A DNA stretch of 64,000 bases. Source: Candidatus Omnitrophota bacterium (GTDB lineage Bacteria > Omnitrophota > Gorgyraeia > Zapsychrales > Zapsychraceae). A program made the position numbers and the translations under genes. The first letter of the stretch is position 1. Each line of letters starts with the position of its first letter. The notes beneath the pieces are model-generated. The model did not search any database and was not told the DNA's origin. It saw only the letters and a program-made list of their open reading frames with translations. This document shows positions 10,540-43,697 of the stretch, piece after piece. The stretch covers positions 17,282 to 81,281 of the forward strand of contig JAGQKV010000019.1 in assembly GCA_020429915.1 (NCBI GenBank), written 5' to 3'.

Positions 10540-11541
10540 ATGAGATTTACAATCGGATTCGACAAAGATGATATCCCCCAGTTGCACGCCTACTGGGACC
10601 AAATCTTCGCCTCCCAACGCTGGTCGGAGGGCGATTTTACACAATCATTTGAGGAAAAGTGGTCCAGGCACAACAACCTCGGTTCCGTCGCGTTTTCCAG
10701 TTGGGGCGGGGCCGCTCTGGCGGCAATGGAATACTTTAATCTCAAAGGGAAAACTGTCCTTTGTCCTTCCAATACCTTCATGGCCACCCCGTTGGCGGCA
10801 ATCAAGGCCGGAGCGCAAGTCGAATTTGTCGATTGCAACCGCAATGACCTGTGCATGTCTTTGGAGGATTTAAAGGCCAAGGTGGAGCAATATAAACCGG
10901 CCGCCATATTTGTCGTTCATATCGGCGGGCACATTGCTTTTGAAATCGAGGAGATCGCAAAATTCTGCCAGCAAAAAGGCATCATCCTGTTAGAGGATTG
11001 CGCACATGCGCATGGGGCCTCCTGGAACGGTAAAAAACCGGGCGCATGGGGAGACGCGGGTGTGTACTCATTTTACGCCACCAAAACGGTGTCGACCGGT
11101 GAAGGCGGTATTCTGGTGACCCGCCACGAGGAATTGGTGGAGTTCGCTAAAAAGTACCGTAATTACGGAAAATTCGAGTACGAAGTCGAGGGATTGAATT
11201 ACCGCATGAGCGAGTTCACGGCGGCTATCGGATGTGTTCAAACCGACCGTCTGGACGAGATTGTCGCTTGGAAAAATGCCTATGTTCGCGAACACCTCGA
11301 CCCGATACATCCCAACCGCGTCATTTTCCCGGACGGAATGATATCCGGCTACTACAAATACATTGTGTTCGATGAAGTCGAGAAATCGACCGGGAAGGTA
11401 TATGATGCCCCGTGCCACAAGATTATGAAGAAAGATTATGATCTTCCGAATACGGACTGGGTGGCACAAAATCATTGGTGCCCGCCTATTTATTACAAAG
11501 GCGAGGAAGTTCAACTGGAAACACTTTTGGCCAACAAATAA
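10540..11541 (+). CDS. DegT/DnrJ/EryC1/StrS-family PLP-dependent sugar aminotransferase
   Basis: Fold-type I aminotransferase motifs including the ...SFYATKTVSTGEGG... lysine region; 333 aa. Confidence 0.85.
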   Translation: MRFTIGFDKDDIPQLHAYWDQIFASQRWSEGDFTQSFEEKWSRHNNLGSVAFSSWGGAALAAMEYFNLKGKTVLCPSNTFMATPLAAIKAGAQVEFVDCNRNDLCMSLEDLKAKVEQYKPAAIFVVHIGGHIAFEIEEIAKFCQQKGIILLEDCAHAHGASWNGKKPGAWGDAGVYSFYATKTVSTGEGGILVTRHEELVEFAKKYRNYGKFEYEVEGLNYRMSEFTAAIGCVQTDRLDEIVAWKNAYVREHLDPIHPNRVIFPDGMISGYYKYIVFDEVEKSTGKVYDAPCHKIMKKDYDLPNTDWVAQNHWCPPIYYKGEEVQLETLLANK

Positions 11542-11560
11542 TCACTTATCGAAGGAGGAA

Positions 11561-12535
11561 ATGATGAAGGTAATGGTAACAGGCGGATCCGGTTTTATTG
11601 GATCCCATTTGGTGGAAAAATTAATCGACAAAGGTATTAAGGTCCGTATTTACGATTTGCAGTCTCCGGACTTTCTGGAAGAACTTCCCGAGGACAAGAA
11701 AAAGATGGTGGACTATTACCAGGGCAGTCTGTTGGAACAAGACCGACTGAGAATAGCCTCCAGCGGATCGGACTATATTTTTCACTTGGCGGCGGTAGCC
11801 AATGTCAACGACGTGGAGCGTGAACCGCGCTATGCGTTCGATATCAATATGACCGGCACCTTTAACGTCCTGGAAGCAGCTCGCAATAATCCCGGCATCA
11901 AACGAGTCATTTTTGCCAGCACGGTTTGGTCGTACCAGTGCACTCCGCAGATCGGGGACGAAGAGTTGCAGGAAGATGCTCCCCTGGCGCTTCCGTCTCA
12001 TTTTTACACGGCAACAAAGATAGCCGGAGAAGCCATGTGTAAATCCTACAGCGATTTATACGACGTTAACTATACTATCTTACGGTTTGGAGTTCCGTAT
12101 GGCGTGCGCGCCCGGGGTGCCATCGTGACGGCGATATTCGTTCACCGGGCACTGACGGGACAGGCCATTACCATCGCAGGTGACGGAAGCCAGTACCGGA
12201 AATTCGTCAATGTGGAAGACTTGGCTGAAGGGTGCGTCTTGTCATTGAGTGAGAAGGCGAGAAATAAAATCTATAACCTGGAAGGGGAAGAGATGGTGTC
12301 GATAAAGGATATTGCCGATGCCGTCGATGAACTGATCGGTAATGTTGAGATCATTTATACCGAAGGCCGCAAAGGCGATTTTAAAGGGAAAGACATTTCC
12401 AATAAGGCAGCCAAGGCCGATTTGGGTTGGGAACCCAAAATCAGCTTTAAGGAAGGCCTGGGAAGATATATTGACTGGTACAAAAAGGTCCTTTCCCAGG
12501 CGCAAGCCGACGAAAAGGCTGTCGCGCTGGTCTAA
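11561..12535 (+). CDS. NAD-dependent sugar epimerase/dehydratase (SDR family)
   Basis: VTGGSGFIGSHLVEKL Rossmann motif, YTATK catalytic motif. RBS GAAGGAGG precedes the ATG at 11561. The track ORF started further upstream at 11438 inside the previous gene. Confidence 0.85.
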   Translation: MMKVMVTGGSGFIGSHLVEKLIDKGIKVRIYDLQSPDFLEELPEDKKKMVDYYQGSLLEQDRLRIASSGSDYIFHLAAVANVNDVEREPRYAFDINMTGTFNVLEAARNNPGIKRVIFASTVWSYQCTPQIGDEELQEDAPLALPSHFYTATKIAGEAMCKSYSDLYDVNYTILRFGVPYGVRARGAIVTAIFVHRALTGQAITIAGDGSQYRKFVNVEDLAEGCVLSLSEKARNKIYNLEGEEMVSIKDIADAVDELIGNVEIIYTEGRKGDFKGKDISNKAAKADLGWEPKISFKEGLGRYIDWYKKVLSQAQADEKAVALV

Positions 12536-12550
12536 GGTGCTGTCTTAACC

Positions 12551-13264
12551 ATGAAGGTTACGATTCACCAACCGGAACATCTGCCATGGCTGGGATTTCT
12601 CGATAAATCCTCCATGGCGGATGTTGTGGTTTTTCTCGATACGGTGCAGTACCGGAAGAATTATTTTCTGAACCGGAACAAAGTCAGGACCGCCCAGGAA
12701 TTTGCCTGGATTACGGTCCCGGTGGCCAAGCATAAGCTGCAGACTCCGATAAACGAAATCGGTATCAACAATTTATTGACTTGGCAAAACAAATGCTGGC
12801 GCACCATCGAACAGAATTACTCCAAAGCCGACTACTTTGGCGACTTTAGCGAGAAATTCCGGGTCCTCTATACGACCCCGTATGACTTTCTGGTCGATTT
12901 GAATGTCGCCCTTTTGAAGTTTCTGTTTGAGTCATATGGCATCCGTACCCGTATTATTATGGCGTCGGAACTTGAGGGTGCCGAGGGACAAAGGGATGAG
13001 TTGCTCTTGAGCATCTGCCGTGAATTGGAAGCCGACTGCTACTTATCCGGGATTTCCGGGAAAGAATATTTGGATATGCGGATATTTGAGGAGGCCGGGA
13101 TAGGCGTTGAGTTTCAGGAGTTTTATCATCCCGTGTACAAGCAACTCTATGATCCGTTTATTCCGTGCATGTCGTCGATTGATTTGTTGTTTAATCACGG
13201 GCCGAATGCTTTTGATATCTTAAAAAGTCCGAAAACCGAAAGATTGGCCTACCAATTTGAATAG
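12551..13264 (+). CDS. WbqC-like family protein (O-antigen/polysaccharide locus accessory enzyme)
   Basis: 237 aa; N-terminus MKVTIHQPEHLPWLGFLDK and overall pattern typical of WbqC-like (PF08889) proteins. Confidence 0.6.
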   Translation: MKVTIHQPEHLPWLGFLDKSSMADVVVFLDTVQYRKNYFLNRNKVRTAQEFAWITVPVAKHKLQTPINEIGINNLLTWQNKCWRTIEQNYSKADYFGDFSEKFRVLYTTPYDFLVDLNVALLKFLFESYGIRTRIIMASELEGAEGQRDELLLSICRELEADCYLSGISGKEYLDMRIFEEAGIGVEFQEFYHPVYKQLYDPFIPCMSSIDLLFNHGPNAFDILKSPKTERLAYQFE

Positions 13265-13274
13265 AGGTTGAGAA

Positions 13275-13946
13275 ATGGCACAACAAATACTGGTCGTAGC
13301 ACCACATATGGATGATGAAGTATTGGGATGCGGTGCGACTATTTGCCGGCACGTGAAGAAGGGAGACCGGGTAACGGTCTTAATAGTGGCCAACCGCGCC
13401 TATGGTCATCGGTATGATGAGGAGCTCATTCAAAAGGAAAAGGAATGTACTCAGGCGGCCCAAAAGGTCCTGGGTTATCAGGATTTGATTTTCCTGGACC
13501 TCCCGGATGAATGTCTGGATCAGTCACAAATAGAGATCATTAAGGCCATGGAGGCGGTTTTGTCGGGGGCAGAGCCGGATGTGGTGTACCTACCCAACCG
13601 CGGCGATAACAACCAGGATCATCGCAGTGTATTCACCGCAGCCCGGATTGTCTTTCGTTCGCATTCGGCTGATAAGACCCCCGCTTTACGCGTATACGAA
13701 GTTCCTTCGTCGACGGATGTGGTGCCCTGTTTCAGCGAGTTTAATTTTCAGGCCAATTTGTACGTGGATGTGACGGAGTATCTATCGTTAAAGATTCGGG
13801 CCATGGCGTGTTACGAGAAGGAGTCCCGAGTGTTTCCCCATCCGCGGTCACCGGAAGGAATCGAAGTTTCAGCCAAGAAACGGGGCATAGAGGTCGGTCT
13901 GAGCGCGGCCGAGGCCTTTATGGTCATTCGGGACATTTGGAGGTGA
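13275..13946 (+). CDS. PIG-L/LmbE-family N-acetyl-sugar deacetylase
   Basis: N-terminal APHMDDEVLGCG zinc-binding motif (HxDD) diagnostic of the LmbE/PIG-L family; 223 aa. Confidence 0.75.
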   Translation: MAQQILVVAPHMDDEVLGCGATICRHVKKGDRVTVLIVANRAYGHRYDEELIQKEKECTQAAQKVLGYQDLIFLDLPDECLDQSQIEIIKAMEAVLSGAEPDVVYLPNRGDNNQDHRSVFTAARIVFRSHSADKTPALRVYEVPSSTDVVPCFSEFNFQANLYVDVTEYLSLKIRAMACYEKESRVFPHPRSPEGIEVSAKKRGIEVGLSAAEAFMVIRDIWR

Positions 13947-13953
13947 TATCTGT

Positions 13954-15717
13954 ATGAAAAGCCATACCTACATCATAAGTGAAATCGCCAGCACGCATGA
14001 GGGAGACTACGCTTATCTGCGTTCTTTAATAAAGGACGTCGCCAGTACCGGTGCGGATGCTATAAAGTTTCAAATTTTCCGTGCCGAGGAAGTTGTGGAT
14101 CCTGCGCATCCTGATTTTGGCGACTTGGAGCGATATCAATTTACCGCGGGACAGTGGAGTGAATTGATTATGCTGGCGCGGGAATATGCCTTGGATGTGT
14201 GGGTGGTCAGCTCTGGCGATTTCAGCCGAACGGTTATCCACGAAAACCGGGATCATATTCACGGAATTGAATTGCATGCATCGGATGTGGGAAATATAGT
14301 GATGCTGGAATTCGCCAATGAATGCGGCAAGCCGATGATCCTTAGTTGTGCCGGTGCGACGTTGAGCGAGATTATCGAGGCCCTGGACGTTTTAGACAAG
14401 GACCGCCAAATAATCTTAATGCATGGCTTTCAAGGGTACCCCACTCATTTGGACGATCTGAACATCGGCCGTATCCGCAGCCTAAAAAAGACGTTTCCGT
14501 TTCATATCGGATTCGCCGATCATATTTCGGGAGACCATCCGATGTCCGTGCTGTCTCCGTTGTTGGCGGTAGGGGCCGGCGCCGACGTGGTAGAGAAACA
14601 CATAACCCGCAATCGTGCCGAAAAACGTGATGACTATTTCAGTTCACTCGATCCGCAGGACTTCAAACGGATGGTAGAGTTGCTGCGCCAATCGGACGCA
14701 GCCCTGGGTACAGAGTTGTTCCGTTTCTCCGAAGCGGAAATCAAGTACCGCCGCGATATGAAAAAGAAAATCAAAGTCATGCAACCGATTGCGCCGGGGG
14801 AAGTCATCCGTCGTGGTCAGGTTGCATTTGTCCGTAACGCCGAGGGGACCGAACCGGTGTCCTTCGGCAGCATACAGCACAAACCCGTGAAGACCGCGTT
14901 GATCCCCGGGACCTTTCTCAGGGAAAGCCATTTACGCAATGAAGTGGGAGTTTTCGTAAACGCCCGTCTGCATTCGACCCGCTTGCCGCGCAAAGCCTTA
15001 AAGCCATTTTACGGGGGGATGACCACCATCGAATACCTGCTGAAGAGACTGACGTCGTATTCGGGGGATATTGGACGCATTGTGTTTGCGACCAGTACCG
15101 AAGAAGAAGACGCGCCGCTTGTCGATTGTGCGCGGAATATCGGTGTAGATTTTCTCCGGGGAGATCCGTTGGACATTATGCTGCGGATGTTGCAGGTGGT
15201 TGATCAATTTGGATTCACCACACTGGTACGGGTGACGGGTGACGATATTCTGGTATCGGGAGAGTACATCGAGAAGGCCCTTGAGTATCATTTTGAGCGA
15301 AATCTGGAATATACCCGGATCGCGGGACTGGCCTATGGAGCGGAATGTGAGATCATCGATACCAGTATGCTAAAACGCATTTATCCGCACGTGGTCCATA
15401 AGAAAGACACGGAATATCTGACGTGGTTCTTGGACGGATCCGGAGTATGCAAAACCGATATCATGCAAGCCCGGCAAGAAGATCAACGGCCGGACTACCG
15501 GCTGACCCTGGATTATCAAGAGGATTTTGATCTGATGCGGGACTTGGTTGAACAGTGTCACCCGAAAATCGAACAGTTTTACATCCCGCTGACAATGATC
15601 AATCAATATTTGGACGGAACACATTTGAATGTTCCGCATACGGATGCTTGGCAAAAAATCAGCCGGGAAGACATTGATGTTTCCTTGAACTATCAATTTG
15701 AGAGGGCAGCCCGATGA
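13954..15717 (+). CDS. Bifunctional fusion: NeuB-family nonulosonic-acid synthase (N-terminal ~320 aa, with SAF domain) plus acylneuraminate-type cytidylyltransferase domain (C-terminal ~260 aa)
   Basis: N-terminal NeuB TIM-barrel motifs (IISEIASTHEGD, DAIKFQ); SAF-like stretch (KVMQPIAPGEVI). The C-terminal half has a cytidylyltransferase signature NARLHSTRLPRKAL (the R..S.RLP.K motif of CMP-NeuAc/CMP-Kdo synthetases); 587 aa. Confidence 0.7.
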   Translation: MKSHTYIISEIASTHEGDYAYLRSLIKDVASTGADAIKFQIFRAEEVVDPAHPDFGDLERYQFTAGQWSELIMLAREYALDVWVVSSGDFSRTVIHENRDHIHGIELHASDVGNIVMLEFANECGKPMILSCAGATLSEIIEALDVLDKDRQIILMHGFQGYPTHLDDLNIGRIRSLKKTFPFHIGFADHISGDHPMSVLSPLLAVGAGADVVEKHITRNRAEKRDDYFSSLDPQDFKRMVELLRQSDAALGTELFRFSEAEIKYRRDMKKKIKVMQPIAPGEVIRRGQVAFVRNAEGTEPVSFGSIQHKPVKTALIPGTFLRESHLRNEVGVFVNARLHSTRLPRKALKPFYGGMTTIEYLLKRLTSYSGDIGRIVFATSTEEEDAPLVDCARNIGVDFLRGDPLDIMLRMLQVVDQFGFTTLVRVTGDDILVSGEYIEKALEYHFERNLEYTRIAGLAYGAECEIIDTSMLKRIYPHVVHKKDTEYLTWFLDGSGVCKTDIMQARQEDQRPDYRLTLDYQEDFDLMRDLVEQCHPKIEQFYIPLTMINQYLDGTHLNVPHTDAWQKISREDIDVSLNYQFERAAR

Positions 15718-16760
15718 AGGTCGGACAACACACCATCGGTGCGGGGCATCCCGTATTCATCATCGGGGAAATCGGCACCAACCACAACGGCCGAATAGAT
15801 ACGGCCAAGGAACTGATCGATATGGCCGCCGCTGCCGGAGTCAATGCCGTAAAGTTTCAGACTTTCAAGGCGACGGATATCATCAATCCCACATTGCCCG
15901 CAGATTATGATCCGCAGGAACCGGTCCCGTCCAAGTATACATACTTTCATGAGTATATCGCGGAGTATGAATTGCCGTATGAATGGCATGATGAATTGAT
16001 CACATATGCGTCGGCGCAGAGGATCGAGTTTATATCAACGCCGTGTTCACTGGAAGCCGTCGATTTTCTGGCCGACCGAATTCCCGCCTACAAGATTGCC
16101 TCCATGGACCTTAACAATGTGCGGCTGCTCAATGCCGTCGGGAGGAAACAGAAGCCGGTCATCATTTCCTCGGGGATTGGAAGTTTGGGTGACATAGAGA
16201 AGGCCTTGGATGTGCTGCGCGGCAGCGGCTGTCCTGAGATTTGTTTACTGCACTGCGTTTCCAATTATCCGGCCAAACCTGCGGAGCTGAATCTAAGAAA
16301 CATCAAGATGTTGGCCGCCGCGTTCGGAGTCCCGGTCGGCTTTTCAGATCACTCTCTGGGCTTTGTCAGTTCCGTCGTCGCGGTCGCGTTGGGCGCGTGT
16401 GTGATCGAAAAACATATTACCCTGGACCGGACCATGCCGGGGCCGGACCATTCCTTCGCGTTGGATAAGAACGGCCTCACTGATTTGGTAACGGCTGTCC
16501 GGGAGGCTGAAGCGTCATTGGGCCGTTCGACGCGGAGTATTAGCGCGGATGAACGGCCTAAGATCTCGACCTACCGGCGGAGTATCTGCTCGAATAAACC
16601 TCTCGCCAAGGGGCACCGGGTCACGGCCGGGGATATTGACATTATCCGCCCGGGAAACGGAATTGATCCCTACGATTTGGAAAAGGTTATCGGATTGAGT
16701 CTTCAACGGGAGATAGCGGCATTTACGCCGCTGTCGTGGGAATTATTTAAGGATGAATAG
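15714..16760 (+). CDS. NeuB/PseI/LegI-family N-acetylneuraminate (nonulosonate) synthase
   Basis: IIGEIGTNHNG, VKFQTFKA and a C-terminal SAF/antifreeze-like domain; 348 aa; ATGA overlap with the preceding gene. Confidence 0.85.
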   Translation: MKVGQHTIGAGHPVFIIGEIGTNHNGRIDTAKELIDMAAAAGVNAVKFQTFKATDIINPTLPADYDPQEPVPSKYTYFHEYIAEYELPYEWHDELITYASAQRIEFISTPCSLEAVDFLADRIPAYKIASMDLNNVRLLNAVGRKQKPVIISSGIGSLGDIEKALDVLRGSGCPEICLLHCVSNYPAKPAELNLRNIKMLAAAFGVPVGFSDHSLGFVSSVVAVALGACVIEKHITLDRTMPGPDHSFALDKNGLTDLVTAVREAEASLGRSTRSISADERPKISTYRRSICSNKPLAKGHRVTAGDIDIIRPGNGIDPYDLEKVIGLSLQREIAAFTPLSWELFKDE

Positions 16761-17781
16761 ACTGTATTTGCGTCTGGATGCGGCGAGTTTTCTGGGCTAC
16801 GGGCACATGTACCAATGTTTGGCGTTGGCCGAGGTTTGCCGCACCGACTTTTCAATTATTTTTTTGGTGAAAGACCATGAACCCGGCGTGGCAGAGCAGA
16901 TCCGCTTGGCGGGATATCCGGTGTTGAATGTTCCGCATGCCATGGATGAGGAGCAGGAGGTCGAGTTTATCCTGAGCAATGTCCCGCGGGAGGGAACGGC
17001 CGGGATACTCATCGACCACCACTATCTCAGTGAAGACTACTCCCGGCGCTTGAAACAGGGGGGCTATTGGCTTGCCCAAATAGATGACGAAGGTAAGCGG
17101 GGATTTTGTTGCGACCTGCTGATTAACTACAACATTTACGCGGATGAGATTCCCTACAGCACCGGTACGCATACCGTGAAACTCTTGGGTCCGCAATATG
17201 CAATCTTGCGGTGGGAGTTCGGCGGATTGCCGGATACGGCCAAGAATTCAGCGCGGTTGCTGGTCACCATGGGGGGCGGCTATGCCCGCGGAGAAGTCGT
17301 CAAGATCTTGGCGGCGCTGGAGCTCATTGCGCCAGATATTCTCGAACGGATCGACCCGGTGATCATTGTGGGATCCGGATATCCCGGCAGCGGTGAGCTC
17401 GTGAGGGCGTGCGCGGACAAACCCTTCACCGTTATTGTGAGTCCCTCCGGCATGGCCCGTCACATGATGGGGGCCGGATTTGCCGTCAGCGGTGCCGGCG
17501 GCACTCTGTATGAACTGGCCCGGTGCCGAGTGCCGGCGATAACCATAACATTGGACCACAACCAGGAACAGATCGCGGACGGTTTTGCCGCACGGGGACT
17601 GTCCGTCAGTCTCGGCTGGTATGAGTCGGTGACCCCCGAGGCGATCGCCGCGGCCATCACACGATGGGCCGATCAGGACGAAGTCCGGGAAGATTATCGC
17701 CGCCGAGTAACCGGTTTGATAGACGGCAAAGGCACGGAACGAATCGCGATGGAGATAAAAAGACAATGTCTGGTCGCTTAG
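16753..17781 (+). CDS. PseG-like UDP-sugar hydrolase (GT28 C-terminal-domain-like) of nonulosonic acid biosynthesis
   Basis: 342 aa; glycosyltransferase-28-like C-terminal fold motifs (GGTLYELARCRVPAI) typical of the pseudaminic-acid PseG family. Confidence 0.6.
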   Translation: MNRLYLRLDAASFLGYGHMYQCLALAEVCRTDFSIIFLVKDHEPGVAEQIRLAGYPVLNVPHAMDEEQEVEFILSNVPREGTAGILIDHHYLSEDYSRRLKQGGYWLAQIDDEGKRGFCCDLLINYNIYADEIPYSTGTHTVKLLGPQYAILRWEFGGLPDTAKNSARLLVTMGGGYARGEVVKILAALELIAPDILERIDPVIIVGSGYPGSGELVRACADKPFTVIVSPSGMARHMMGAGFAVSGAGGTLYELARCRVPAITITLDHNQEQIADGFAARGLSVSLGWYESVTPEAIAAAITRWADQDEVREDYRRRVTGLIDGKGTERIAMEIKRQCLVA

Positions 17782-18317
17782 CCACGGTCGAACTTCTCTC
17801 CGAGGGAACCTTGGAACATTTGGCTGAGAGCCTGGTCGAACTGGATCAGTTCGTCGTGGCGGAAATGGCGGAGCTGTTCTCGAGCGAGCCCTGGCTGACG
17901 CGCCATTTCGCCATGCCCTTGCCGGACAAGTGGAATTTAAGCTGCGTCGCGACGGAAGGTCGGGAAGTGACGGCCTTTGTGATTGGGTCCAGGATTGCGC
18001 CGGATACGGGATATATCCACCGTTTTGTAGTGGCCCCGGCAGCCCGGTCCAAGGGGGTCGGATCCAAATTATTGGATTTCTTTCATAGCAAAGCCGGCGC
18101 ATTAGGGTTGAACCGGATTTTTCTGGAAGTCAACCGCCACAATTCCGGGGCGGTCAAATTTTACCGCAAGAACCGATACCTTGCGTGTGATGATGAACAG
18201 ATTCGGAATTATTTGATCATGAGGGACAAATTGGAGGAGGCCAAACTCGGAGATTCCTTCTATGTAGAAGAGGGATTTCCCGATGAGAAGTGTGTGATGC
18301 AGAGGATGATACGGTGA
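17766..18317 (+). CDS. GNAT-family N-acetyltransferase (PseH-like)
   Basis: GNAT motif A (HRFVVAPAARSKGVGSKLL); start at the ATG at 17766, overlapping the preceding gene by 16 nt (the track ORF began upstream inside the PseG-like gene). Confidence 0.65.
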   Translation: MSGRLATVELLSEGTLEHLAESLVELDQFVVAEMAELFSSEPWLTRHFAMPLPDKWNLSCVATEGREVTAFVIGSRIAPDTGYIHRFVVAPAARSKGVGSKLLDFFHSKAGALGLNRIFLEVNRHNSGAVKFYRKNRYLACDDEQIRNYLIMRDKLEEAKLGDSFYVEEGFPDEKCVMQRMIR

Positions 18318-20098
18318 AGATCATACTAACCCGATTATTCGGTGAATCAGCCGGTGAGAAGTCGTTGTACTTGGGACCGTGGTGCGTCGACTACTCCGCA
18401 GGTCAGCCGGCGGACGTCCGCCGGATCTTGGCGAATCCTTGGGCGGACCGGGAAAAGGTCGATCAAGCCGCCGAAGAATGTTTTGCCTATTACCTGAGGC
18501 TGATTAAAGAATTGACCCCGATATTTAATCGTATTCATGGGGTTAATAAGGAGGATCGCTATTGGAAGATACTTGTTGGTCCTTGGCTGCTGAGATTTTT
18601 GCACACGGCCTATGACAGATACATTCATATTGCCGCCGCCCGGGAGGCCTATGGTGAATTTGAGAGCGCGTGTCTTCAACCGGAAGACTATCTGACGCCA
18701 CAGAACACGCTGGATTTTAATTATCGGGTGTTTGATGATTTCTACAATCACCAGTTGTTTACCCGGATCGTCCGTCATATGGACCTGCCGCATTCCTTGC
18801 GGTCCGCCGTCGCGGGGACGACGAATTCCGGAAACGAGACGGAGTATATCAAACGGAAGGAACGATTGCGCGGCTTGAAGAAGCTGTTGAAGTGGGCCAG
18901 TTTTCGGATGGCGGCCAACCGCCGGACGTATTTGTGCGATGTTTATCTTTCGCGGCGCGACATACGCGACATGATTGTTCAAAGTAAGGGCGCTCTTTGG
19001 CCGAGCCAATACACTTGGGAGAATTCCTATCCGCGTATTTATCATAAGGATGAACTGAAACGTTCCGAGCTGAGCCGCATACCGTGGCGCAATGATTTTG
19101 AAGAACTGTTCGTCTCGTTGTTGGCGGATGAGATCCCGGCGCTTTATCTGGAAGGATATGCGTCGGCTTGTCAGCGCATACACGGCGAAATCCGGCGGAT
19201 GCCCGACCGCATTTTCTCTTCCATAGGCTGGTTCTTTAATGAACATCTGAAGTTCTTGGCGGCAGAAAGTCTGCAAAACGGGGTTCACCTTATCGGCAGT
19301 CAGCACGGAGGGGGATATGGTTCGGGTCGGATTCCGGTAGAGCGGCAGGAACTGGATTTGGTGGACACATATTGCACATGGGGTTGGCACGCTCACGGGT
19401 ATGATACGAGGGTGCTTCCGTCTCCGCGATTGCAAGAACAGTTTCGCCGCGAGCATTTGGCGGAGGCAGGACGTCCGGACATCCTCTTTGTGGGTACCAA
19501 CCATCCCCGCTACACTTACTATTTGTACAGTGTCCCATTGAACAGTCAGTTCGATGATTACATTGGCCAGCGCGCAGACTTTTACCGGGCGCTCGAGGGC
19601 ACCGCGCAGGCCGCCGTCCGTTGGCGATTGTACATGCGTCACTACGGCCGATTTGACCGGCAGCGGCTGGCGGCCGATATTCCGGAGGCGCGGTTCGACG
19701 AGGCGCCTTCGATGGAGGCGGCACTAAAAACAGCGCGACTGGCGGTCGTCGACCATTTGATGACCAGTTATCATGAACTGTTGGCGATGAATTTTCCCAC
19801 GATAGTTATCGGTAACGATCGATTATGGGAGGTGCGCGAAGGGGTGCGTGAATTGTATGAGACCTTACAGGAGGCGGGGATTCTGTTCTCAGACCCCCGG
19901 AAGGCGGCCGAGCATATAAATAAGGTTTACCATGATCCCGCCGCCTGGTGGTTCGGTCCGGAGGCCCAGGCGGCGCGCGGTGCTTTCTGCCGGCAAATGG
20001 CGTGCGGTTCTCCGCACTGGTGTTCCCTGTGGCAGCAGATGATCGCTCAACCGCGCCGCGCGGCGAAAAGCGAAGGAGAATTGAGTCGTGTCTGTTAA
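18314..20098 (+). CDS. Large uncharacterised protein, putative transferase of the glycan locus (GT-B/capsule-transferase-like)
   Basis: ~595-aa ORF with a probable GTG start at 18314 (GTGA overlap with the upstream stop). No family recognisable by eye. Distant architectural similarity to the 714-aa ORF at 40127. Confidence 0.45.
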   Translation: MKIILTRLFGESAGEKSLYLGPWCVDYSAGQPADVRRILANPWADREKVDQAAEECFAYYLRLIKELTPIFNRIHGVNKEDRYWKILVGPWLLRFLHTAYDRYIHIAAAREAYGEFESACLQPEDYLTPQNTLDFNYRVFDDFYNHQLFTRIVRHMDLPHSLRSAVAGTTNSGNETEYIKRKERLRGLKKLLKWASFRMAANRRTYLCDVYLSRRDIRDMIVQSKGALWPSQYTWENSYPRIYHKDELKRSELSRIPWRNDFEELFVSLLADEIPALYLEGYASACQRIHGEIRRMPDRIFSSIGWFFNEHLKFLAAESLQNGVHLIGSQHGGGYGSGRIPVERQELDLVDTYCTWGWHAHGYDTRVLPSPRLQEQFRREHLAEAGRPDILFVGTNHPRYTYYLYSVPLNSQFDDYIGQRADFYRALEGTAQAAVRWRLYMRHYGRFDRQRLAADIPEARFDEAPSMEAALKTARLAVVDHLMTSYHELLAMNFPTIVIGNDRLWEVREGVRELYETLQEAGILFSDPRKAAEHINKVYHDPAAWWFGPEAQAARGAFCRQMACGSPHWCSLWQQMIAQPRRAAKSEGELSRVC

Positions 20099-21176
20099 AA
20101 GCGGCCAACACGTACAATTTCGGAATCACGCTTTTATCGTGGGGTCCCTTAAAGTCGGGACAACTTTGTTGCTCTCGCTTTTGGAGGGACACAGGGATGC
20201 CCTGGCCTTTCCGTTTGAGTTGAAGTATCACAAGCTTTTTCATACCGCGGCCGGCGGCGCGTTGGGGAAGGCCCGGGATTTGAATGCGTTCTTCTTGACC
20301 GAGTCGAAATTTACCCATTTTCGAAAGGATCTGCACGACGATCCCTATAACACAGGGATGTTGGATTTCAGCGGTGTGGACTACGGGCGATTGACGGGTT
20401 ACCTAGACGCCTTGCCGAAGGAAGATTACCAGCGGTCGGAGTATTTTGAGGAATTGGCCCGCTCATATATGTACGCGACGGGTGATAGTCGCGAAATGAT
20501 ATCATGCCTTATTGAAAAACCCGGTAACCACGCCCTGGATTATATCGACACGATATATCAGGACTTTCCCGGCGCCAAGATTATCCATCTCGTCCGGGAT
20601 CCGCGCACGACGTTGTCCTCGGCCAAGAACGCCGTTATGAAATATAACGGCGTGTGGGGGCAGTACGAACCGAATGAGATTCTGGAGAAGATTCTTCAGG
20701 GGTTCGAGGTCGCCCGGAAATACGGCGGTACGGAGAGTTATAAAGTGATACGTTACGAGGATCTGGTCGCCCGGCCGCGCGAAGTGGTCGAAGATCTGCT
20801 CAAATGGCTTGGTTTACCGTGGGACGAAAACTGTTTGCGGCCGACGTTCCTGGGGCGGACGTGGCAAGGGAACAGCAGTTCGGATACCAAGTTCCAGGCG
20901 CCGAGCGTCGATCGGGTGGAATCCCCCACCGGAGAATTGACGGCCGGTGAAGATAAGTGGGTCGAGATTCGATTGGCGCGGTATTTGCGCGAATATTCTT
21001 ACTCTCAACGGCATGCGGACATGCCGGTCTTGGAGCGCGCATGGATGATCGTGTGGTTTGGATGCCTGCGGCCTTTATTCAGAAAAGTCGGCTGGACCGC
21101 CTCAAAATTGGTCCGACTTGACCGCTATCCGGCGTACATCAAGAAATGGAAACAGAAACGTGCACGAAGGAGATAA
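20088..21176 (+). CDS. Sulfotransferase (PAPS-dependent) family protein
   Basis: 5'-PSB loop-like IVGSLKVGTTLL and 3'-PB motif HLVRDPRTTLSS (RDPR), the two PAPS-binding signatures of sulfotransferases; 362 aa; GTG start. Confidence 0.65.
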   Translation: MSVKSGQHVQFRNHAFIVGSLKVGTTLLLSLLEGHRDALAFPFELKYHKLFHTAAGGALGKARDLNAFFLTESKFTHFRKDLHDDPYNTGMLDFSGVDYGRLTGYLDALPKEDYQRSEYFEELARSYMYATGDSREMISCLIEKPGNHALDYIDTIYQDFPGAKIIHLVRDPRTTLSSAKNAVMKYNGVWGQYEPNEILEKILQGFEVARKYGGTESYKVIRYEDLVARPREVVEDLLKWLGLPWDENCLRPTFLGRTWQGNSSSDTKFQAPSVDRVESPTGELTAGEDKWVEIRLARYLREYSYSQRHADMPVLERAWMIVWFGCLRPLFRKVGWTASKLVRLDRYPAYIKKWKQKRARRR

Positions 21177-21180
21177 CGTT

Positions 21181-22218
21181 ATGTCCACCTACATAGAGAA
21201 TATTTTGGCCAAAGCTCCTTATGTGATTGCCGAAGCCGGCATCAACCACAATGGCGACCGTGCGCTGGCCCGTGATATGATCGACGCCGCCAAGGAAAAC
21301 GGCGCGGATTGCATCAAGTTTCAGAGTTTTTTGGCTGACAAGTATATCTCCAGGAAGGCGGGCCGTGCGGGTTACCAGAATCAATCTTCGGTCGGCGGTA
21401 AAAGTCAGCATCAGATCATTCAGGAAACGGAAATGAGCCAGGAGATGTATATCGAATTGTGCGCACATGCCGCCAAAAGAGAGATCGATATCTTATCCAC
21501 GCCTTTCGAAGTCTGGAGTTTCCGTTCACTGATGGAGTTGAAGGTCCCGGCCGTCAAGATCAGCTCCTGCAATCTTACGAATTATCCTTTTTTGCGGGAG
21601 ATCTCCGCGACGGGTGTGCCCGTCCTATTGTCCACAGGGATGGGGACCTTGGAGGAGGTGGATAAGGCGGTGACGATATTTAAGGAGAGCGAATCGCCGC
21701 TTATTTTATTTCAGTGTACGTCCAATTATCCGTCCAGGATTGAGAATGCGAATTTAAATGTCCTTAAGACTTACCAGCAGCGTTATGAAGTGCCGGTGGG
21801 TTTGTCGGACCACACACCGACGCATACCACCTGCATTGCGGCGGTGGCTTTGGGTGCGGTCGCCTTGGAGAAACATTTTACGTTGTCCCGGAAGCTTCCG
21901 GGTATCGATCAACAAGCCTCTATAGAGCCGCGGGAACTCAAAGAACTGGTGACCGCCGTGCGGGATTGCCGGAAGGCATTGGGCAGTGCCGAGAAAATGC
22001 GTTCGGATGAAGAGGAAGACACGTTTGTCGCGTTGCGGCGAAGTTTGGTGGCCGCCCGGGATTTGACCAGCGGGGAAGTATTGACCGAGGAGATGATCGC
22101 CATTAAGCGCCCGGGCAATGGATTGACGACGGAATATTTGCCGCGGCTGGTCGGAAAAAAGCTCTCGCGGGATATCGGGGAAGACGAGTTGCTGCGCCTG
22201 GAGGATTTTGGTGACTGA
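21181..22218 (+). CDS. NeuB-family nonulosonate synthase, third paralogue
   Basis: IAEAGINHNGD, IKFQSF and a C-terminal SAF domain. RBS AAGGAG before the ATG at 21181 (the track ORF started 123 nt upstream inside the previous gene). Confidence 0.85.
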   Translation: MSTYIENILAKAPYVIAEAGINHNGDRALARDMIDAAKENGADCIKFQSFLADKYISRKAGRAGYQNQSSVGGKSQHQIIQETEMSQEMYIELCAHAAKREIDILSTPFEVWSFRSLMELKVPAVKISSCNLTNYPFLREISATGVPVLLSTGMGTLEEVDKAVTIFKESESPLILFQCTSNYPSRIENANLNVLKTYQQRYEVPVGLSDHTPTHTTCIAAVALGAVALEKHFTLSRKLPGIDQQASIEPRELKELVTAVRDCRKALGSAEKMRSDEEEDTFVALRRSLVAARDLTSGEVLTEEMIAIKRPGNGLTTEYLPRLVGKKLSRDIGEDELLRLEDFGD

Positions 22219-23122
22219 CAAAAATTTAAGAACCGTGATCTTTGGCGTAAAAGGCATCGCCTTGCAGGCATTCACATGTCTTTTCAATGAAGGGGCTGAC
22301 ATCGTCGCGGTGGTCACCACCGAATCTCCGGAAAACGCGCGGTTGCACGATGCGGCCAGCCGCAAAGGTATCTCCGTTTTTCATGATGCGTGTGCGGATG
22401 CGCTGGCTCCGCTGCAACCCGAGCGGGGACTTGTATTTTCATACCCGCGCCGGATCGGTGATGATGTGCTCGAACTTTGTACCGGGGGTGTTTACAATTT
22501 TCATCCGGCCCGCCTTCCTGATTACCGGGGTTGTCTGCCGACGGTATGGCCTATCCTGAATGGGGATGAGCAGGCGGAGTGTACGGTTCATCGCGTGGTC
22601 CGGGACTTTGACGCAGGGGATGTCGTGTACACCAGGAGTGTTGCCATTGACAGGCGCGAAACCGGGTACTCCTTGTATGGCAAGCTGATGGACGCGGAAG
22701 TGACCTTGCTGGCCGATCATCCTCAACTTTGGCGGCAGTCCCGGCTGACCGGTGAGCCCCAGGACGAATCCCGGGCGCAGTATTTCCGAAACCGGCTGCC
22801 CGGCGGGGGACGGATTGACTGGACGCAGCCGGCGGTCACGGTAGAACGCTTTGTCCGCGCCGTTTACCATCCTGACTTCCGTTGTGCCTACACGGAATGT
22901 GAGGAGTTGACGGTGGAGATATTGGATGCGGAACTCAGCCGGGAACTTGCTCCGGCGGGGGCGGCAGGAAAAGTTTTCTGTGATACGGCGCGGCAGCGAT
23001 TGTTGATCGGTTGCGGCGATGAATTATTGTCAATCCGCCGTATTCGCCTGAAGGATCAGATATGGGACGAGGACTTGGTTTCAAAAATCACTCAACACGT
23101 ACCGCATTTGGTACACAGTTAG
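22208..23122 (+). CDS. Formyltransferase-family protein (Fmt/ArnA-N-like), probable sugar N-formyltransferase
   Basis: Formyl-transferase core HPARLPDYRGCLP (cf. the HPSLLPxxRG motif of Fmt/PurN); 304 aa; TTG/GTG start overlapping the upstream stop. Confidence 0.7.
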   Translation: MVTDKNLRTVIFGVKGIALQAFTCLFNEGADIVAVVTTESPENARLHDAASRKGISVFHDACADALAPLQPERGLVFSYPRRIGDDVLELCTGGVYNFHPARLPDYRGCLPTVWPILNGDEQAECTVHRVVRDFDAGDVVYTRSVAIDRRETGYSLYGKLMDAEVTLLADHPQLWRQSRLTGEPQDESRAQYFRNRLPGGGRIDWTQPAVTVERFVRAVYHPDFRCAYTECEELTVEILDAELSRELAPAGAAGKVFCDTARQRLLIGCGDELLSIRRIRLKDQIWDEDLVSKITQHVPHLVHS

Positions 23123-23136
23123 AAAGGACAAGCGAC

Positions 23137-24162
23137 ATGAAGTTTCTCATTATTGGAGGAGGGTCGATCGGGAAGCGCCACACGCGGAACCTGATTGCCC
23201 TGGGGACATCAAAGGATGACATTACTATCGTTGAAACGCGGGCGGACCGGCAGCAGGAAATCCGCGAAACGATCGGAGTAACCCGGATCTTCGACAATCT
23301 GGATAAAGCGCTCGCCGCAGAGACTTACTTTGCCGGTTTCATTTGCGCGCCCACCAATTTGCATATTCCCATGGGGATTAAATTGGCGGAAAAGGGGATC
23401 CATATTTTGATGGAGAAGCCTCTGGCGCACAACCTGGATGGTATCGAAGATCTAAAGGACAAGGTAGAGTCTAGTAAAGTAGTGGTTGCGTTGGCGTACA
23501 TCTTCCGATTTCATCCGGGCATTCAACGGCTCAAGGAGTTGTTGGTTTCCGGCGCCATCGGAAAGGTTTTGAATGTGCGCGCGGAATTCTCCGAATTTCT
23601 CCCGGATTGGCATCCATGGGAGGATTACCGGACCTTCTACATGGCCAAGAAGTCCAGCGGCGGAGGATCCATTCTGGATCAATGCCATATTATGGACTTG
23701 GTTCATTATTTGGTCGGCGGCTTTAAGTCTGTCTACGCGATCAACACCAAGGTGAGCGGCCTTGAGATTGATGCCGATGACATTGCGGAGATGATTGTCA
23801 CGCTGGACAACGGCGTGGTGGCATCCATCCACACGGATATATTCGGCCGGGATCACAAGAAGTACATCGAGATCAAGGGAGAGCACGGCAATCTTTACTG
23901 GGATTTCTATGCAAATGAAGTCCAGCATTATGTCGCCGATACCAAGATCAAGAATGTCCACCGTAAATTTCCGACGGACTTTAATCTTTGTTATTTGGAA
24001 GAGCTGCGCAACTTTATCGCGGCCTGCGAAGGCAAAGAGGAACCCCGGGCGGACTTGCAGGTCGGGATCGAGACGATGGAACTAATCCTGGCCGCGGAGA
24101 AATCCCAAAAGACGCAAAAGGTCGAGCAGGTTATCAGCACGGAAGCGGCGGGAGTGGCCTAA
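23137..24162 (+). CDS. Gfo/Idh/MocA-family NAD(P)-dependent oxidoreductase
   Basis: N-terminal Rossmann motif MKFLIIGGGSIGKRH and an EKP motif (LMEKPLA) typical of Gfo/Idh/MocA; start at the ATG at 23137. Confidence 0.8.
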   Translation: MKFLIIGGGSIGKRHTRNLIALGTSKDDITIVETRADRQQEIRETIGVTRIFDNLDKALAAETYFAGFICAPTNLHIPMGIKLAEKGIHILMEKPLAHNLDGIEDLKDKVESSKVVVALAYIFRFHPGIQRLKELLVSGAIGKVLNVRAEFSEFLPDWHPWEDYRTFYMAKKSSGGGSILDQCHIMDLVHYLVGGFKSVYAINTKVSGLEIDADDIAEMIVTLDNGVVASIHTDIFGRDHKKYIEIKGEHGNLYWDFYANEVQHYVADTKIKNVHRKFPTDFNLCYLEELRNFIAACEGKEEPRADLQVGIETMELILAAEKSQKTQKVEQVISTEAAGVA

Positions 24163-25083
24163 ATGTCACCGTGTTACCTGTCGTCCAGTTGTTTTTCAAT
24201 GATGCCGATGGAAGACGTGCTGTCGCAATGCCGTCAGAGAGGTATTATGCATCTGGAATGGTCGGCGCCGCATCCGTGGATGGGGGCGCCGGCCATCGCC
24301 GGCTTGCTGCGCGATTCCTTGCCGCACGGGTTTGCGTTTGTCCCGCACAATTATTTTCCGCCGCCCAAGCGGGACTTTGTCCTGAATATTGCGTCGGAAA
24401 ATGAAGCGGTCAAAGACGACTGTCGCCGGTTGATGACGGATGTGCTGGAGATATCGGCCGCGGTCAACGCGCCGCTGTACGGAGTTCACGCCGGATATTT
24501 GGCCGACCCGGTGGCCGGGGCTGACGGGATGTTCCGCTTTCCGGAGGAAACCATCCCCTACGGTCGGGCTATGAAGAACAGTATTGCCTTCGTTGAGGAG
24601 ATTTTGCCGTCTTTTCGGGCCGCCGGCGTCCGACTGCTGATCGAGAATTTGTTTCCCGTCCCGCAGGGAGAGTTCTCGTTGAATTGTTCATTCGAAGAGA
24701 TTAAGGATTTGATGGCGGGGCTTGGGAATGACGTAGGGCTCCTGCTGGATTTGGGTCACTTAAACGTGACGTGCGAGCTGCGTGGAATCAGGCGAAACAG
24801 GATGATCGACGCCTATCTTTCCGAGTTCGGTTCAAGAATTTTCGAAGTGCATTTATCCGAGAATAATGGGCGGGCGGACGAACATAAACCCGTCTTGCCG
24901 GGAAGCTGGCAATTGGAAATTATCAAGGAAATTCAAGGCATCCCGGTCGCCGAGAGCGGTGAGCGTATCTTTTGTCTGGAGGCCAGGCGCAGCCGGGATT
25001 TTGAAGAAATACAACTAAGTCTGGACTGTATCAATGACAGTTTGAGTCAAGCAACCGGCATTCCGGGGGGATTAGGACGATGA
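24163..25083 (+). CDS. Sugar-phosphate isomerase/epimerase (xylose-isomerase-like TIM barrel)
   Basis: 306 aa with a TIM-barrel AP-endonuclease/xylose-isomerase-like pattern (VHAGY..., LIENL..., LDLGH). Confidence 0.55.
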   Translation: MSPCYLSSSCFSMMPMEDVLSQCRQRGIMHLEWSAPHPWMGAPAIAGLLRDSLPHGFAFVPHNYFPPPKRDFVLNIASENEAVKDDCRRLMTDVLEISAAVNAPLYGVHAGYLADPVAGADGMFRFPEETIPYGRAMKNSIAFVEEILPSFRAAGVRLLIENLFPVPQGEFSLNCSFEEIKDLMAGLGNDVGLLLDLGHLNVTCELRGIRRNRMIDAYLSEFGSRIFEVHLSENNGRADEHKPVLPGSWQLEIIKEIQGIPVAESGERIFCLEARRSRDFEEIQLSLDCINDSLSQATGIPGGLGR

Positions 25084-29573: not shown

Positions 29574-29586
29574 GACCCAAAACAAA

Positions 29587-33532: not shown

Positions 33533-33534
33533 AC

Positions 33535-34901: not shown

Positions 34902-34904
34902 AGG

Positions 34905-43683: not shown

Positions 43684-43697
43684 GAACAGGACAGGAT

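Follow-up and report, generated by a model that had tools for sequence, protein, structure and literature searches.

Why should a single surface-polysaccharide island carry three genes for NeuB-family nonulosonic acid synthases? The question is raised by a 64,000-nucleotide stretch of contig JAGQKV010000019.1 (positions 17,282 to 81,281, forward strand; assembly GCA_020429915.1), referred to here as the window, from a metagenome-assembled genome (MAG) of Candidatus Omnitrophota. A preliminary description of this stretch had placed NeuB paralogues at 13954, 15714 and 21181, the first fused to a cytidylyltransferase domain, and had suggested that more than one nonulosonic acid, or an unusually elaborated one, is made. 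All genes of the island (about 55 kb, at about 8.4-62.9 kb of the window) lie on the plus strand, and the three NeuB-family open reading frames (ORFs) are intact and span about 8 kb of it:

13954-15717, plus strand: NeuB-1, a divergent NeuB fused to an SpsF/6OEW-type cytidylyltransferase, 587 aa (Pfam, AlphaFold2 model)
15714-16760, plus strand: NeuB-2, a canonical NeuB+SAF synthase, 348 aa (PF03102 E 2e-83; SAF 24 bits)
21181-22218, plus strand: NeuB-3, a NeuB+SAF synthase, 345 aa (PF03102 E 1.2e-81; SAF E 3.3e-13, 50 bits)

The three genes sit in distinct modules, from which we infer two activated sugars, possibly three. On balance, we favour the view that more than one activated ulosonic acid would be made from the island.

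The three translations score 127.7 (NeuB-1), 280 (NeuB-2) and 274 bits (NeuB-3) against the Pfam NeuB model PF03102, far above its gathering score of 22.1 bits, which bears out the three placements. Their mutual identity is 23-35%, and they are 24-38% identical to solved NeuB, PseI and SpsE structures. In a neighbour-joining tree of 139 NeuB domains they fall into three separate clades. The fusion-type domains are monophyletic, and the deepest split of the tree separates them from every canonical NeuB, PseI and SpsE sequence; NeuB-3 lies in a clade of its own, sister to the Leptospira structure 6ncs; and the NeuB-2 clade is distinct from Campylobacter jejuni PseI, Bacillus subtilis SpsE and Neisseria meningitidis NeuB. 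A phylogeny had been proposed in the preliminary description, and the separation emerged, although from a tree that excludes characterised LegI and KdnB and carries no bootstrap. Judged from sequence, the three genes are ancient, anciently diverged paralogues.

Conservation of the active site was assessed with the residue numbering of N. meningitidis NeuB, whose sequence was rebuilt from Protein Data Bank alignments, with the R314A and R314K entries fixing Arg314. The equivalents of Glu25, Lys53, Gln55, His215, Glu234, His236, Asp247 and Arg314 are kept in all three paralogues. Lys129 is present in NeuB-2 and NeuB-3 and is replaced by Glu106 in NeuB-1, while position 134 is Asp in NeuB-1 and NeuB-2 and Asn in NeuB-3. 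Loss of catalytic residues had been named beforehand as an outcome that would undermine the idea of several working synthases; this was seen in part, in the Glu of NeuB-1 and the Asn of NeuB-3, with the other residues retained.

NeuB-1 and NeuB-2 form one fusion-partner pair, the start of NeuB-2 overlapping the stop of the fusion by 4 nt. They belong to a cassette, module A/B (10540-20098), which is followed by a sulfotransferase gene:

10540-11541, plus strand: short DegT-family aminotransferase, 333 aa, module A (PF01041 E 1e-62, profile 9-246 of 360)
11564-12535, plus strand: short-chain dehydrogenase/reductase (SDR) of the epimerase/dehydratase family, 323 aa, module A (PF01370; gene call from L001)
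12551-13264, plus strand: WbqC-family protein (PF08889 E 1.8e-69)
13275-13946, plus strand: PIG-L family de-N-acetylase (PF02585 E 1.7e-23)
16753-17781, plus strand: PseG/SpsG-like nucleotide-sugar hydrolase (TIGR03590 147.6 bits, a narrow miss of the cut-off of 153.55)
17766-18317, plus strand: GNAT N-acetyltransferase, 183 aa (PF00583 E 2.2e-15; gene call from L001)
18314-20098, plus strand: LIC12162-family transferase, a candidate nonulosonic acid transferase (TIGR04331 400 bits, cut-off 225)
20088-21176, plus strand: sulfotransferase (PF13469 E 8.5e-23)

The set of eight genes, DegT, SDR, WbqC, PIG-L, fusion, NeuB, PseG-like and GNAT, recurs in three loci, from a groundwater MAG (L005), Cytobacillus firmus (L009) and Alkalihalophilus pseudofirmus (L010). 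Within these cassettes WbqC again accompanies PIG-L, and Glyco_tran_28_C proteins occupy the place of the PseG-like gene; the syntenic cassette of L005 also has the short DegT and, downstream, a member of the LIC12162 family. A scan with hidden Markov models (HMMs) that covered DegT, fusion, PseG-like, NeuB, WbqC and PIG-L, and excluded SDR and GNAT, found the same genes in L026, L052 and L076 as well. The NeuB-2 clade of the tree takes in the partner genes of the cassette loci L005, L009, L010 and L052. WbqC and PIG-L stand beside the fusion in seven of 90 scanned loci, the window itself not counted; this minority marks them as an add-on that is not core to the role of the fusion. We found no functional literature on WbqC.

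We propose that module A/B would yield a 5,7-diacylamido-tetradeoxy nonulosonic acid of the Pse (pseudaminic acid) series or of the sps-type Leg (legionaminic acid) series. This sugar would be CMP-activated by the C-terminal SpsF-type domain of the fusion and then transferred by the LIC12162-family protein, with PIG-L and WbqC plausibly swapping an N-acyl group. The fusion domain is put forward as the activator because it is the sole cytidylyltransferase of the cassette, both here and in the Bacillaceae cassettes L009 and L010. The single genes give qualified support to the labels they had been given. The PIG-L, WbqC and formyltransferase (22211) assignments are borne out by Pfam matches. The PseG-like label holds as a likeness that falls short of the PseG cut-off (147.6 against 153.55 bits); the gene called PseH-like is a GNAT with no match to the PseH models; and the PseC-like genes are DegT aminotransferases, all three of which score far under the PseC and LegC cut-offs (147 and 128 bits for the module A gene). 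The PIG-L gene reaches 67 bits against the BshB1 model, under its cut-off. An Asp-Glu pair is typical of 4,6-dehydratases; it is absent from the module A SDR, which has 'ASTVWSY' and 'YTATK' and scores 55 bits against PseB. Among solved structures, NeuB-2 is closest to SpsE of B. subtilis and PseI of C. jejuni. An attempt to assign NeuB-2 to the Pse or Leg type by discriminator residues gave an ambiguous result, with Met at 133 and Ser at 184 where SpsE has Tyr and Ala.

The fusion itself is well defined. Pfam places NeuB at residues 25-253 of NeuB-1 (E 6.7e-37) and CTP_transf_3 at residues 334-533 (E 4.8e-16; 59.7 bits, cut-off 22.6), and the layout is a TIM barrel (aa 1-255), a SAF-like region (aa about 256-325) and a cytidylyltransferase (aa about 330-587). 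An AlphaFold2 model built on a 120-sequence alignment is confident (pLDDT 95.7, pTM 0.89). In Foldseek comparisons, its residues 1 to about 340 superpose on the entire C. jejuni PseI including SAF (8h2c, TM 0.81), and its C-terminal part on the Leptospira cytidylyltransferase 6oew (TM 0.83). The SAF region has no Pfam match, yet the model covers the whole of PseI and the Arg314 equivalent is kept. By sequence the cytidylyltransferase half also matches 6oew (E 8e-15), with KdsB a weak and distant match and no match to PseF (TIGR03584) at E<=1e-5. It keeps all columns that are invariant in the 120-member alignment, including S341, R343, K347, R411, R426 and E487. Domain match and model together confirm the fusion claimed for the 13954 gene.

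This fusion had been called unusual, a description that does not survive the survey. The NeuB-cytidylyltransferase architecture returned 258 matches, including Omnitrophica, Alphaproteobacteria, Nitrosopumilus and Bacillus; the family signature L[ML][HP]G[FY]Qx[YF]PT was found in 212 of 185,579 species genomes, both bacterial and archaeal, with SAR11, Thaumarchaeota and Bacillus among the carriers; and 420 representatives at 50% identity came out of a full scan (E<=1e-30). Our literature search found no paper describing the family. Far from being an oddity, the fusion represents a family that is widespread and uncharacterised. Some of its members are named 'spore coat protein' by their sources, and others (P0364, P0371, P0399, P0405, P0409, P0417, P0020, P0041, P0064) are longer, at 740-1045 aa, with extra domains before or after the core.

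The company kept by fusion-type genes was surveyed with HMMs made from the collected sequences, run on 80 species loci from the 212-genome signature search. The fused form is present in 66 of the 80. A separate canonical NeuB lies within 10 kb of the fusion-type gene in 67 (84%), with a median gap of 1.7 kb and on the same strand in 60. As a background we used 79 ordinary NeuB loci from metagenomes, returned by a generic NeuB pattern scan; a fusion-type gene is near the ordinary NeuB in two of these, and the association is thus one-way. This pairing rule looks new. Of the 13 loci without a partner NeuB, several are on short contigs and three are orphan genes of the B. subtilis group. In Bacillus spizizenii (L002, 10001-11791), as in L042, L046 and L051, the fusion is an orphan: the DNA within 10 kb of it is free of sugar genes, and the L002 region also holds a Peptidase_M23 gene and urease genes. 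By analogy with B. subtilis, the sps operon presumably lies elsewhere in these genomes. A separate cytidylyltransferase is present in 45 of the 80 loci, and in 26 loci the fusion is the sole cytidylyltransferase found within 10 kb, beside a canonical synthase. The partner synthases are of mixed type (about 17 Pse-like with Phe, about 31 Neu/Leg-like with Gly, and a few SpsE-like or NeuB-2-like), and 14 partners from other genomes cluster with PseI in the tree. In Nitrosopumilus piranensis (L003), a CTP_transf_3-Glyco_tran_28_C fusion of PseF-PseG type (14966-16582) adjoins a canonical NeuB and lies within 5 kb of a NeuB-cytidylyltransferase fusion, which makes two kinds of activator fusion in one archaeal locus.

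Members of the family share a distinctive active site in the NeuB half. Cys182 is invariantly Gly and Asn184 invariantly Gln, Gly131 is mostly His, position 213 has Ala, Met or Gln instead of Ser, and there is a short insertion just after His215. The equivalents of Gln55, His215, Glu234, His236 and Asp247 are invariant among the 120 aligned members, Glu25 and Lys53 are kept in 118, and Arg314 in 116. We consider it quite improbable that this domain is no PEP-aldose synthase (PEP, phosphoenolpyruvate) and that it instead binds the finished sugar for the cytidylyltransferase or catalyses another reaction. The mixed partners would suit a generic role of that kind, as would the 26 loci in which a canonical synthase has the fusion as its sole neighbouring activator. 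Family-wide changes moreover affect three of the six positions that surround PEP (131, 182 and 184). The near-complete retention of the Glu25, Lys53, Gln55, His215, Glu234, His236 and Asp247 equivalents is hard to explain without metal-dependent catalysis, however; Arg314, a SAF residue, is the target of the R314A and R314K mutant structures, and stand-alone, non-fused relatives exist. In our main reading it is a synthase: the NeuB half belongs to a widespread accessory clade with metal and acid residues kept and the PEP pocket remodelled, and in other organisms it probably catalyses the condensation of PEP with another, related aminosugar.

In the window this half carries one further change. 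Glu106 (codon GAA, 14269-14271) occupies the Lys129-equivalent position in the PEP site, in a column that is Lys in 119 of the 120 fused relatives and Glu in the window protein alone. The change is fixed in the population, an independent variant included, and the identical fusion protein is recorded in a Candidatus Omnitrophica/Omnitrophota MAG and 48 contigs. The role of Lys129 in NeuB is taken from secondary sources, in which position 129 is one of six around PEP in the N. meningitidis enzyme (PMC7371886) and Lys129 is listed as a key active-site residue (PMC6795526). These observations, together with the fusion's position as sole cytidylyltransferase of its cassette, would fit a lineage with only two working synthases, in which the NeuB half is impaired and the protein is kept to activate the NeuB-2 product. 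We hold this account to be possible and rather doubtful. NeuB-1 departs from columns of at least 95% conservation four times, against 0-3 in its neighbours, and its TIM-domain identity to relatives is normal, so that the idea of a decaying NeuB half is not supported; its metal and acid residues are all kept. In a non-fused Bacteroidota clade Glu is the conserved residue of this column, and for this reason we softened an earlier view of the substitution as unique and inactivating. NeuB is moreover thought to act mainly by approximation, and a single change may raise Km rather than abolish activity (PMC12531865). Given the Bacteroidota Glu and the absence of general decay, we read the Lys-to-Glu change, which in this lineage also looks new, as possibly weakening the synthase half and not as proof of inactivity. 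The non-fused Glu subclade (L075, L088, L089 and L090, from Chryseobacterium, Halpernia and Bacteroidia MAGs; about 9.9-11.0 kb) reads 'ELHSTG' or 'EIHSTG', and L075, the single sequence inspected there, has 'KFH' for 'KFQ' at positions 53-55; its PEP site looks as if it were altered further.

The third paralogue belongs to a different gene set. The mechanical ORF begins at TTG 21058, but ATG 21181 is the likelier start, because a ribosome-binding site precedes it (GAAGGAGA, with GGAG) and the sulfotransferase stop lies just upstream, the ATG being 5 nt past it; this agrees with the start first given. In the NeuB-3 clade Glu134 is Asn and His181 is Gln, within the motifs 'KISSCNLTN' and 'FQCTSNYP'. 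Both motifs and both residues are invariant in 58 relatives at 49-79% identity, and Glu25, Lys53, Gln55, His215, Glu234 and His236 are also invariant in the clade. This invariance marks Asn134 as a clade trait, kept under selection, and not as decay. Among environmental, archaeal and eukaryotic synthases Asp commonly replaces Glu134 (PMC8208679); Asn at 134 goes unmentioned in that paper. NeuB-3 opens a set of genes that we call module C (21181-30690 and 37433-39177), interrupted in the window by an ABC exporter and by an inserted cassette (30691-35684):

22211-23122, plus strand: formyltransferase, Fmt/ArnA-N-like (PF00551, PF02911; PRK06988 140 bits, ArnA domain 136 bits)
23137-24162, plus strand: GFO/IDH/MocA oxidoreductase (family search)
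24163-25083, plus strand: xylose-isomerase-like TIM-barrel protein, AP_endonuc_2 (PF01261 E 5.9e-18)
25080-26759, plus strand: CBS-domain and nucleotide-sugar 6-dehydrogenase (TIGR03026 357 bits, cut-off 190)
26687-28594, plus strand: MsbA/HepA-like ABC exporter, start uncertain (same position in L007)
28584-29573, plus strand: SDR with 'SSSEVY' motif (top match LegB, 151 bits, cut-off 475)
29563-30690, plus strand: DegT aminotransferase (PF01041 E 3.6e-115)
37433-38443, plus strand: second GFO/IDH/MocA oxidoreductase (4-nt overlap between its stop and the start of the 38440 gene)
38440-39177, plus strand: NeuA/PseF-type CMP-nonulosonic acid synthetase (PF02348 E 2.6e-24, 86.7 bits)

Close relatives of NeuB-3 adjoin GFO, AP_endonuc_2, formyltransferase, CBS-dehydrogenase, DegT and SDR genes in a genome of the Rhodospirillales with a Maf-type (MptE-like) gene as well (L006), in another Omnitrophica MAG (L007) and on a metagenomic scaffold (L008). 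All four marker genes of the module accompany the NeuB-3-type genes in these three loci, and two of the four (GFO and TIM-barrel) lie beside the one further clade member found, on a 4.3-kb contig (L091); three or more of the four were found in no background NeuB locus. No paper describing module C came up in our literature search, and a clade with Asn134 and a conserved formyltransferase module looks new. The gene at 38440, which had been described as a separate NeuA-like gene and is so confirmed by its PF02348 match, scores 150.4 bits against PseF (TIGR03584, cut-off 205.7) and 137 bits against the CMP-Neu5Ac synthetase 6ifd. A CTP_transf_3 gene stands beside a GFO gene in L005 too, module C of L006 and L008 carries its own CTP_transf_3, and the 38440 gene is likely the activator of module C. 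The window thus has two classes of cytidylyltransferase, SpsF/6OEW-type in the fusion domain and NeuA-type at 38440.

We propose that the product of module C would be a different ulosonic acid that is N-formylated, in the simplest case a Leg-like sugar with 7-N-formyl in place of 7-N-acetyl. An unlikely alternative is a route of the Ugd/ArnA/ArnB kind, in which dehydrogenase, SDR, DegT and formyltransferase carry out C6 oxidation, decarboxylation, C4 transamination and N-formylation to give a 4-formamido-pentosamine, from which NeuB-3 and PEP would form an eight-carbon ulosonic acid. Several features point that way: the formyltransferase matches the ArnA domain (136 bits) and the DegT matches ArnB (246 bits); the nucleotide-sugar 6-dehydrogenase is a constant component of module C; the invariant Asn134 and Gln181 suggest an altered pocket; and the SDR has 'SSSEVY', a motif that may be read as decarboxylase-like, in place of Thr-Asp-Glu. 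The SSE motif also occurs, however, in GDP-mannose-type 4,6-dehydratases, and the top model of this SDR is the LegB 4,6-dehydratase at 151 bits, against 47 for the ArnA SDR domain and 77 for UXS. The DegT has broadly similar scores with PseC (285 bits), LegC (247) and ArnB (246), all under cut-off; the best equivalog of the CBS-dehydrogenase is UDP-ManNAc dehydrogenase (239 bits, under cut-off). The eight-carbon route leaves the GFO and TIM-barrel genes unexplained, and no 5,7-diamino octulosonic acid from nature is known to us. An aminocyclitol (inositol-like) route built from GFO, TIM barrel and DegT was dropped, as it leaves NeuB and the cytidylyltransferase unexplained.

Modules A/B and C occur independently of each other in other genomes. 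The presence of the paralogues in modules that are found separately elsewhere fits more than one nonulosonic acid, or an elaborated (N-formyl) one, as first suggested; the part of that suggestion that named Pse and Leg types does not translate into an assignment. The same independence tells against the three synthases being redundant isozymes that feed one heavily decorated nonulosonic acid, which we regard as very unlikely. The genes do share one strand, one island, transferases and exporters, and C. jejuni PseI is promiscuous for N-acyl variants (PMC13576459); but the paralogues, at 23-35% identity, are unlike at positions proposed for sugar specificity, and two classes of cytidylyltransferase are present. 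What was observed is which genes are present and co-occur, how their domains are arranged and which residues are conserved; from this we infer substrates, products and the matching of activators to synthases.

Our preferred reading, of more than one activated ulosonic acid, has several points against it. The tree on which the clades rest is a neighbour-joining tree without bootstrap, with references limited to four solved structures rebuilt from HMMER alignments and to source names, LegI and KdnB excluded. No paralogue reaches the equivalog cut-offs for N-acetylneuraminate synthase (TIGR03569, 399.65; NeuB-1 156, NeuB-2 330, NeuB-3 380 bits) or PseI (TIGR03586, 340.25; 145, 305 and 268 bits), so that Pse and Leg types are not assignable from sequence. 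The window holds no NeuC/LegG-type hydrolysing 2-epimerase, no PseB-type inverting dehydratase (the best PseB-model score is 79 bits against a cut-off of 408) and no LegH-type gene. It follows that there is no complete textbook Pse or Leg route, and our attempt to reconstruct one failed on these absences. In module C no PseG-type or NeuC-type hydrolase was recognised, and the roles of its dehydrogenase, GFO and TIM-barrel proteins are unexplained. The conserved Glu of the Bacteroidota clade speaks against the step in which the fusion's synthase half is weakened. The mixed partners imply that this half is not tied to one sugar series. JGI labels most homologues of NeuB-3 and of the fusion 'N,N'-diacetyllegionaminate synthase'. 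A point in favour of the reading is that LegB passes its cut-off in the window; LegC stays under its own, and LegG is absent. The LegB gene is the sole equivalog of the nonulosonic acid pathways above its curated cut-off here, and lies with an adjoining gene about 33 kb from the closest NeuB gene:

55261-56253, plus strand: LegB-type NAD-dependent 4,6-dehydratase (TIGR04180 481 bits, cut-off 475)
56246-56983, plus strand: sugar-1-phosphate nucleotidyltransferase (PF00483 E 2.4e-43; top model mannose-1-P guanylyltransferase, 166 bits, under cut-off)

A bolder form of the proposal is tentative, and we think it somewhat unlikely to hold as a whole. In it, the fusion family would be a self-contained second synthase-activator giving a new CMP-sugar, and module C an N-formyl ulosonic route that runs without a PseG or NeuC hydrolase. 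The fusion may then have been recruited beside Pse-, Leg- and Neu-type pathways, its CMP-sugar being unlike the product of the partner pathway. Its carriers include environmental groups of great abundance, namely SAR11, ammonia-oxidising archaea, Nitrospira, anammox Planctomycetes and Bacillaceae.

Nonulosonic acids shape the recognition of microbial surfaces by hosts, phages and grazers, and to our knowledge only three biosynthetic routes, Neu, Leg and Pse, are well understood. The window draws attention to two uncharacterised gene sets conserved across phyla, a fused synthase-activator nearly always accompanied by an ordinary synthase and a formyltransferase-linked clade with an altered catalytic triad, and both are found in groups that are dominant in oceans, groundwater and soils. 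Both can be tested directly at the bench, since some of their carriers are cultivable (Cytobacillus firmus, Alkalihalophilus pseudofirmus, Paenibacillus, Nitrosopumilus). Should the sugars be ordinary Leg or Pse variants, what is described here would be merely a well-annotated glycan island.

Comparison with known systems places the modules more closely. C. jejuni has three NeuB-family paralogues, NeuB1, NeuB2 (LegI) and NeuB3 (PseI), each for its own nonulosonic pathway (PMC7371886). The window likewise has three, with the TIM-barrel and SAF fold, the metal histidines and Arg314. The C. jejuni genes are in separate lipooligosaccharide and flagellar loci, whereas those of the window lie within about 8 kb of one island, include an activator fusion and an Asn134 clade member, miss the equivalog cut-offs and have no Maf-type gene nearby. 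Genetic evidence from B. subtilis shows that the production of legionaminic acid and its transfer to the spore surface depend on an SpsE/SpsG/SpsF-type pathway (PMC7439481). Module A/B matches this set in DegT (SpsC), GNAT (SpsD), NeuB (SpsE), an SpsG-like hydrolase and an SpsF-type cytidylyltransferase. In B. subtilis SpsE and SpsF are two distinct proteins, while the window adds a divergent NeuB fused to the SpsF-like domain, WbqC and PIG-L; SpsE is the best solved relative of NeuB-2, yet NeuB-2 lies outside the SpsE cluster in the tree.

Likeness to the Pse pathway of C. jejuni and Helicobacter pylori is seen in the near-threshold PseG-like protein and, as in PseI, in Ser184 and a bulky residue before 134 in NeuB-2. 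The window differs in having no PseB-type dehydratase, no PseH match to its GNAT and a NeuB-2 that scores 305 against the PseI cut-off of 340. Among Leptospira proteins, 6NCS of Leptospira borgpetersenii is the best solved sequence match of both NeuB-1 and NeuB-3, and 6OEW that of the cytidylyltransferase half of the fusion; the LIC12162-family transferase that follows the cassette is a further likeness. In Leptospira 6NCS and 6OEW are separate polypeptides, for neither of which we found a biochemical characterisation, and the 6NCS chain has 290 residues, the match stopping before the SAF region. The resemblance of module C to the Ugd/ArnA/ArnB pathway (UDP-4-formamido-L-arabinose), in 6-dehydrogenase, SDR, DegT and ArnA-N-like formyltransferase, is one of logic only: the Arn equivalog cut-offs are missed, and module C includes a CMP-type activator and a synthase of the NeuB family.

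The rest of the island gives the setting of these genes. G+C content in 2-kb blocks ranges from 0.475 to 0.59, with 0.49 at 8-14 kb and 0.57-0.58 in neighbouring blocks, and this unevenness fits a mosaic of modules with differing origins. The downstream part contains a CDP-glucose pathway, glycosyltransferases and a polyprenyl-phosphate sugar transferase, and a Wzy_C-like match in the island is weak (21 bits, under the Pfam cut-off of 31.7). Given this content and the absence of any Maf-type flagellin glycosyltransferase gene from the window, the products probably decorate a lipid-linked polysaccharide instead of flagellin. Genes for glucose-1-phosphate cytidylyltransferase (48727-49500; 361 bits, cut-off 300) and CDP-glucose 4,6-dehydratase (51774-52940; 468 bits, cut-off 278) indicate that the island probably makes a CDP-6-deoxy- or dideoxyhexose as well. 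Sulfation genes are interleaved with those for nonulosonic acids (APS kinase at 8979-9539, Sulfotransfer_3 at 20088-21176 and 36307-37440), the island having two sulfotransferases and two APS-kinase-type genes in total, which suggests a sulfated glycan.

Three ORFs, at 9549-10511 (320 aa), 40106-42250 (714 aa) and 59072-60586 (504 aa), have no match in Pfam or NCBIfam and are candidates for novel glycosyltransferases or polymerases. Radical SAM/SPASM, AsnB-type amidotransferase, DegT and methyltransferase genes are grouped at 42562-47985 and may encode tailoring enzymes for nonulosonic acids. Of the PseA/AsnB-like label given earlier to the amidotransferase at 43698, the AsnB-type part stands (TIGR01536 405 bits, cut-off 267). 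AsnB-type genes flank NeuB genes in L004 and L006 too, and radical SAM genes are found in L004, L005 and L006.

The cassette inserted in module C (30691-35684, plus strand) has the domain set of C. jejuni Cj1415-Cj1418, the pathway to CDP-phosphoramidate 3'-phosphate (PMC11800397), the O-methyl-phosphoramidate donor. It comprises a PPDK_N/PEP-utiliser protein (PRK05849, 881 bits, cut-off 501), an APS-kinase-like protein (PRK05541, 197 bits, cut-off 127), a GATase-I protein that reaches 116 bits against the gamma-glutamyl-CDP-amidate hydrolase model (under its cut-off of 250), a nucleotidyltransferase (NTP_transf_3) and a methyltransferase. The same cassette follows module C in L007 as well (19533 onward), and the insertion may mark phosphoramidate decoration outside Campylobacter.

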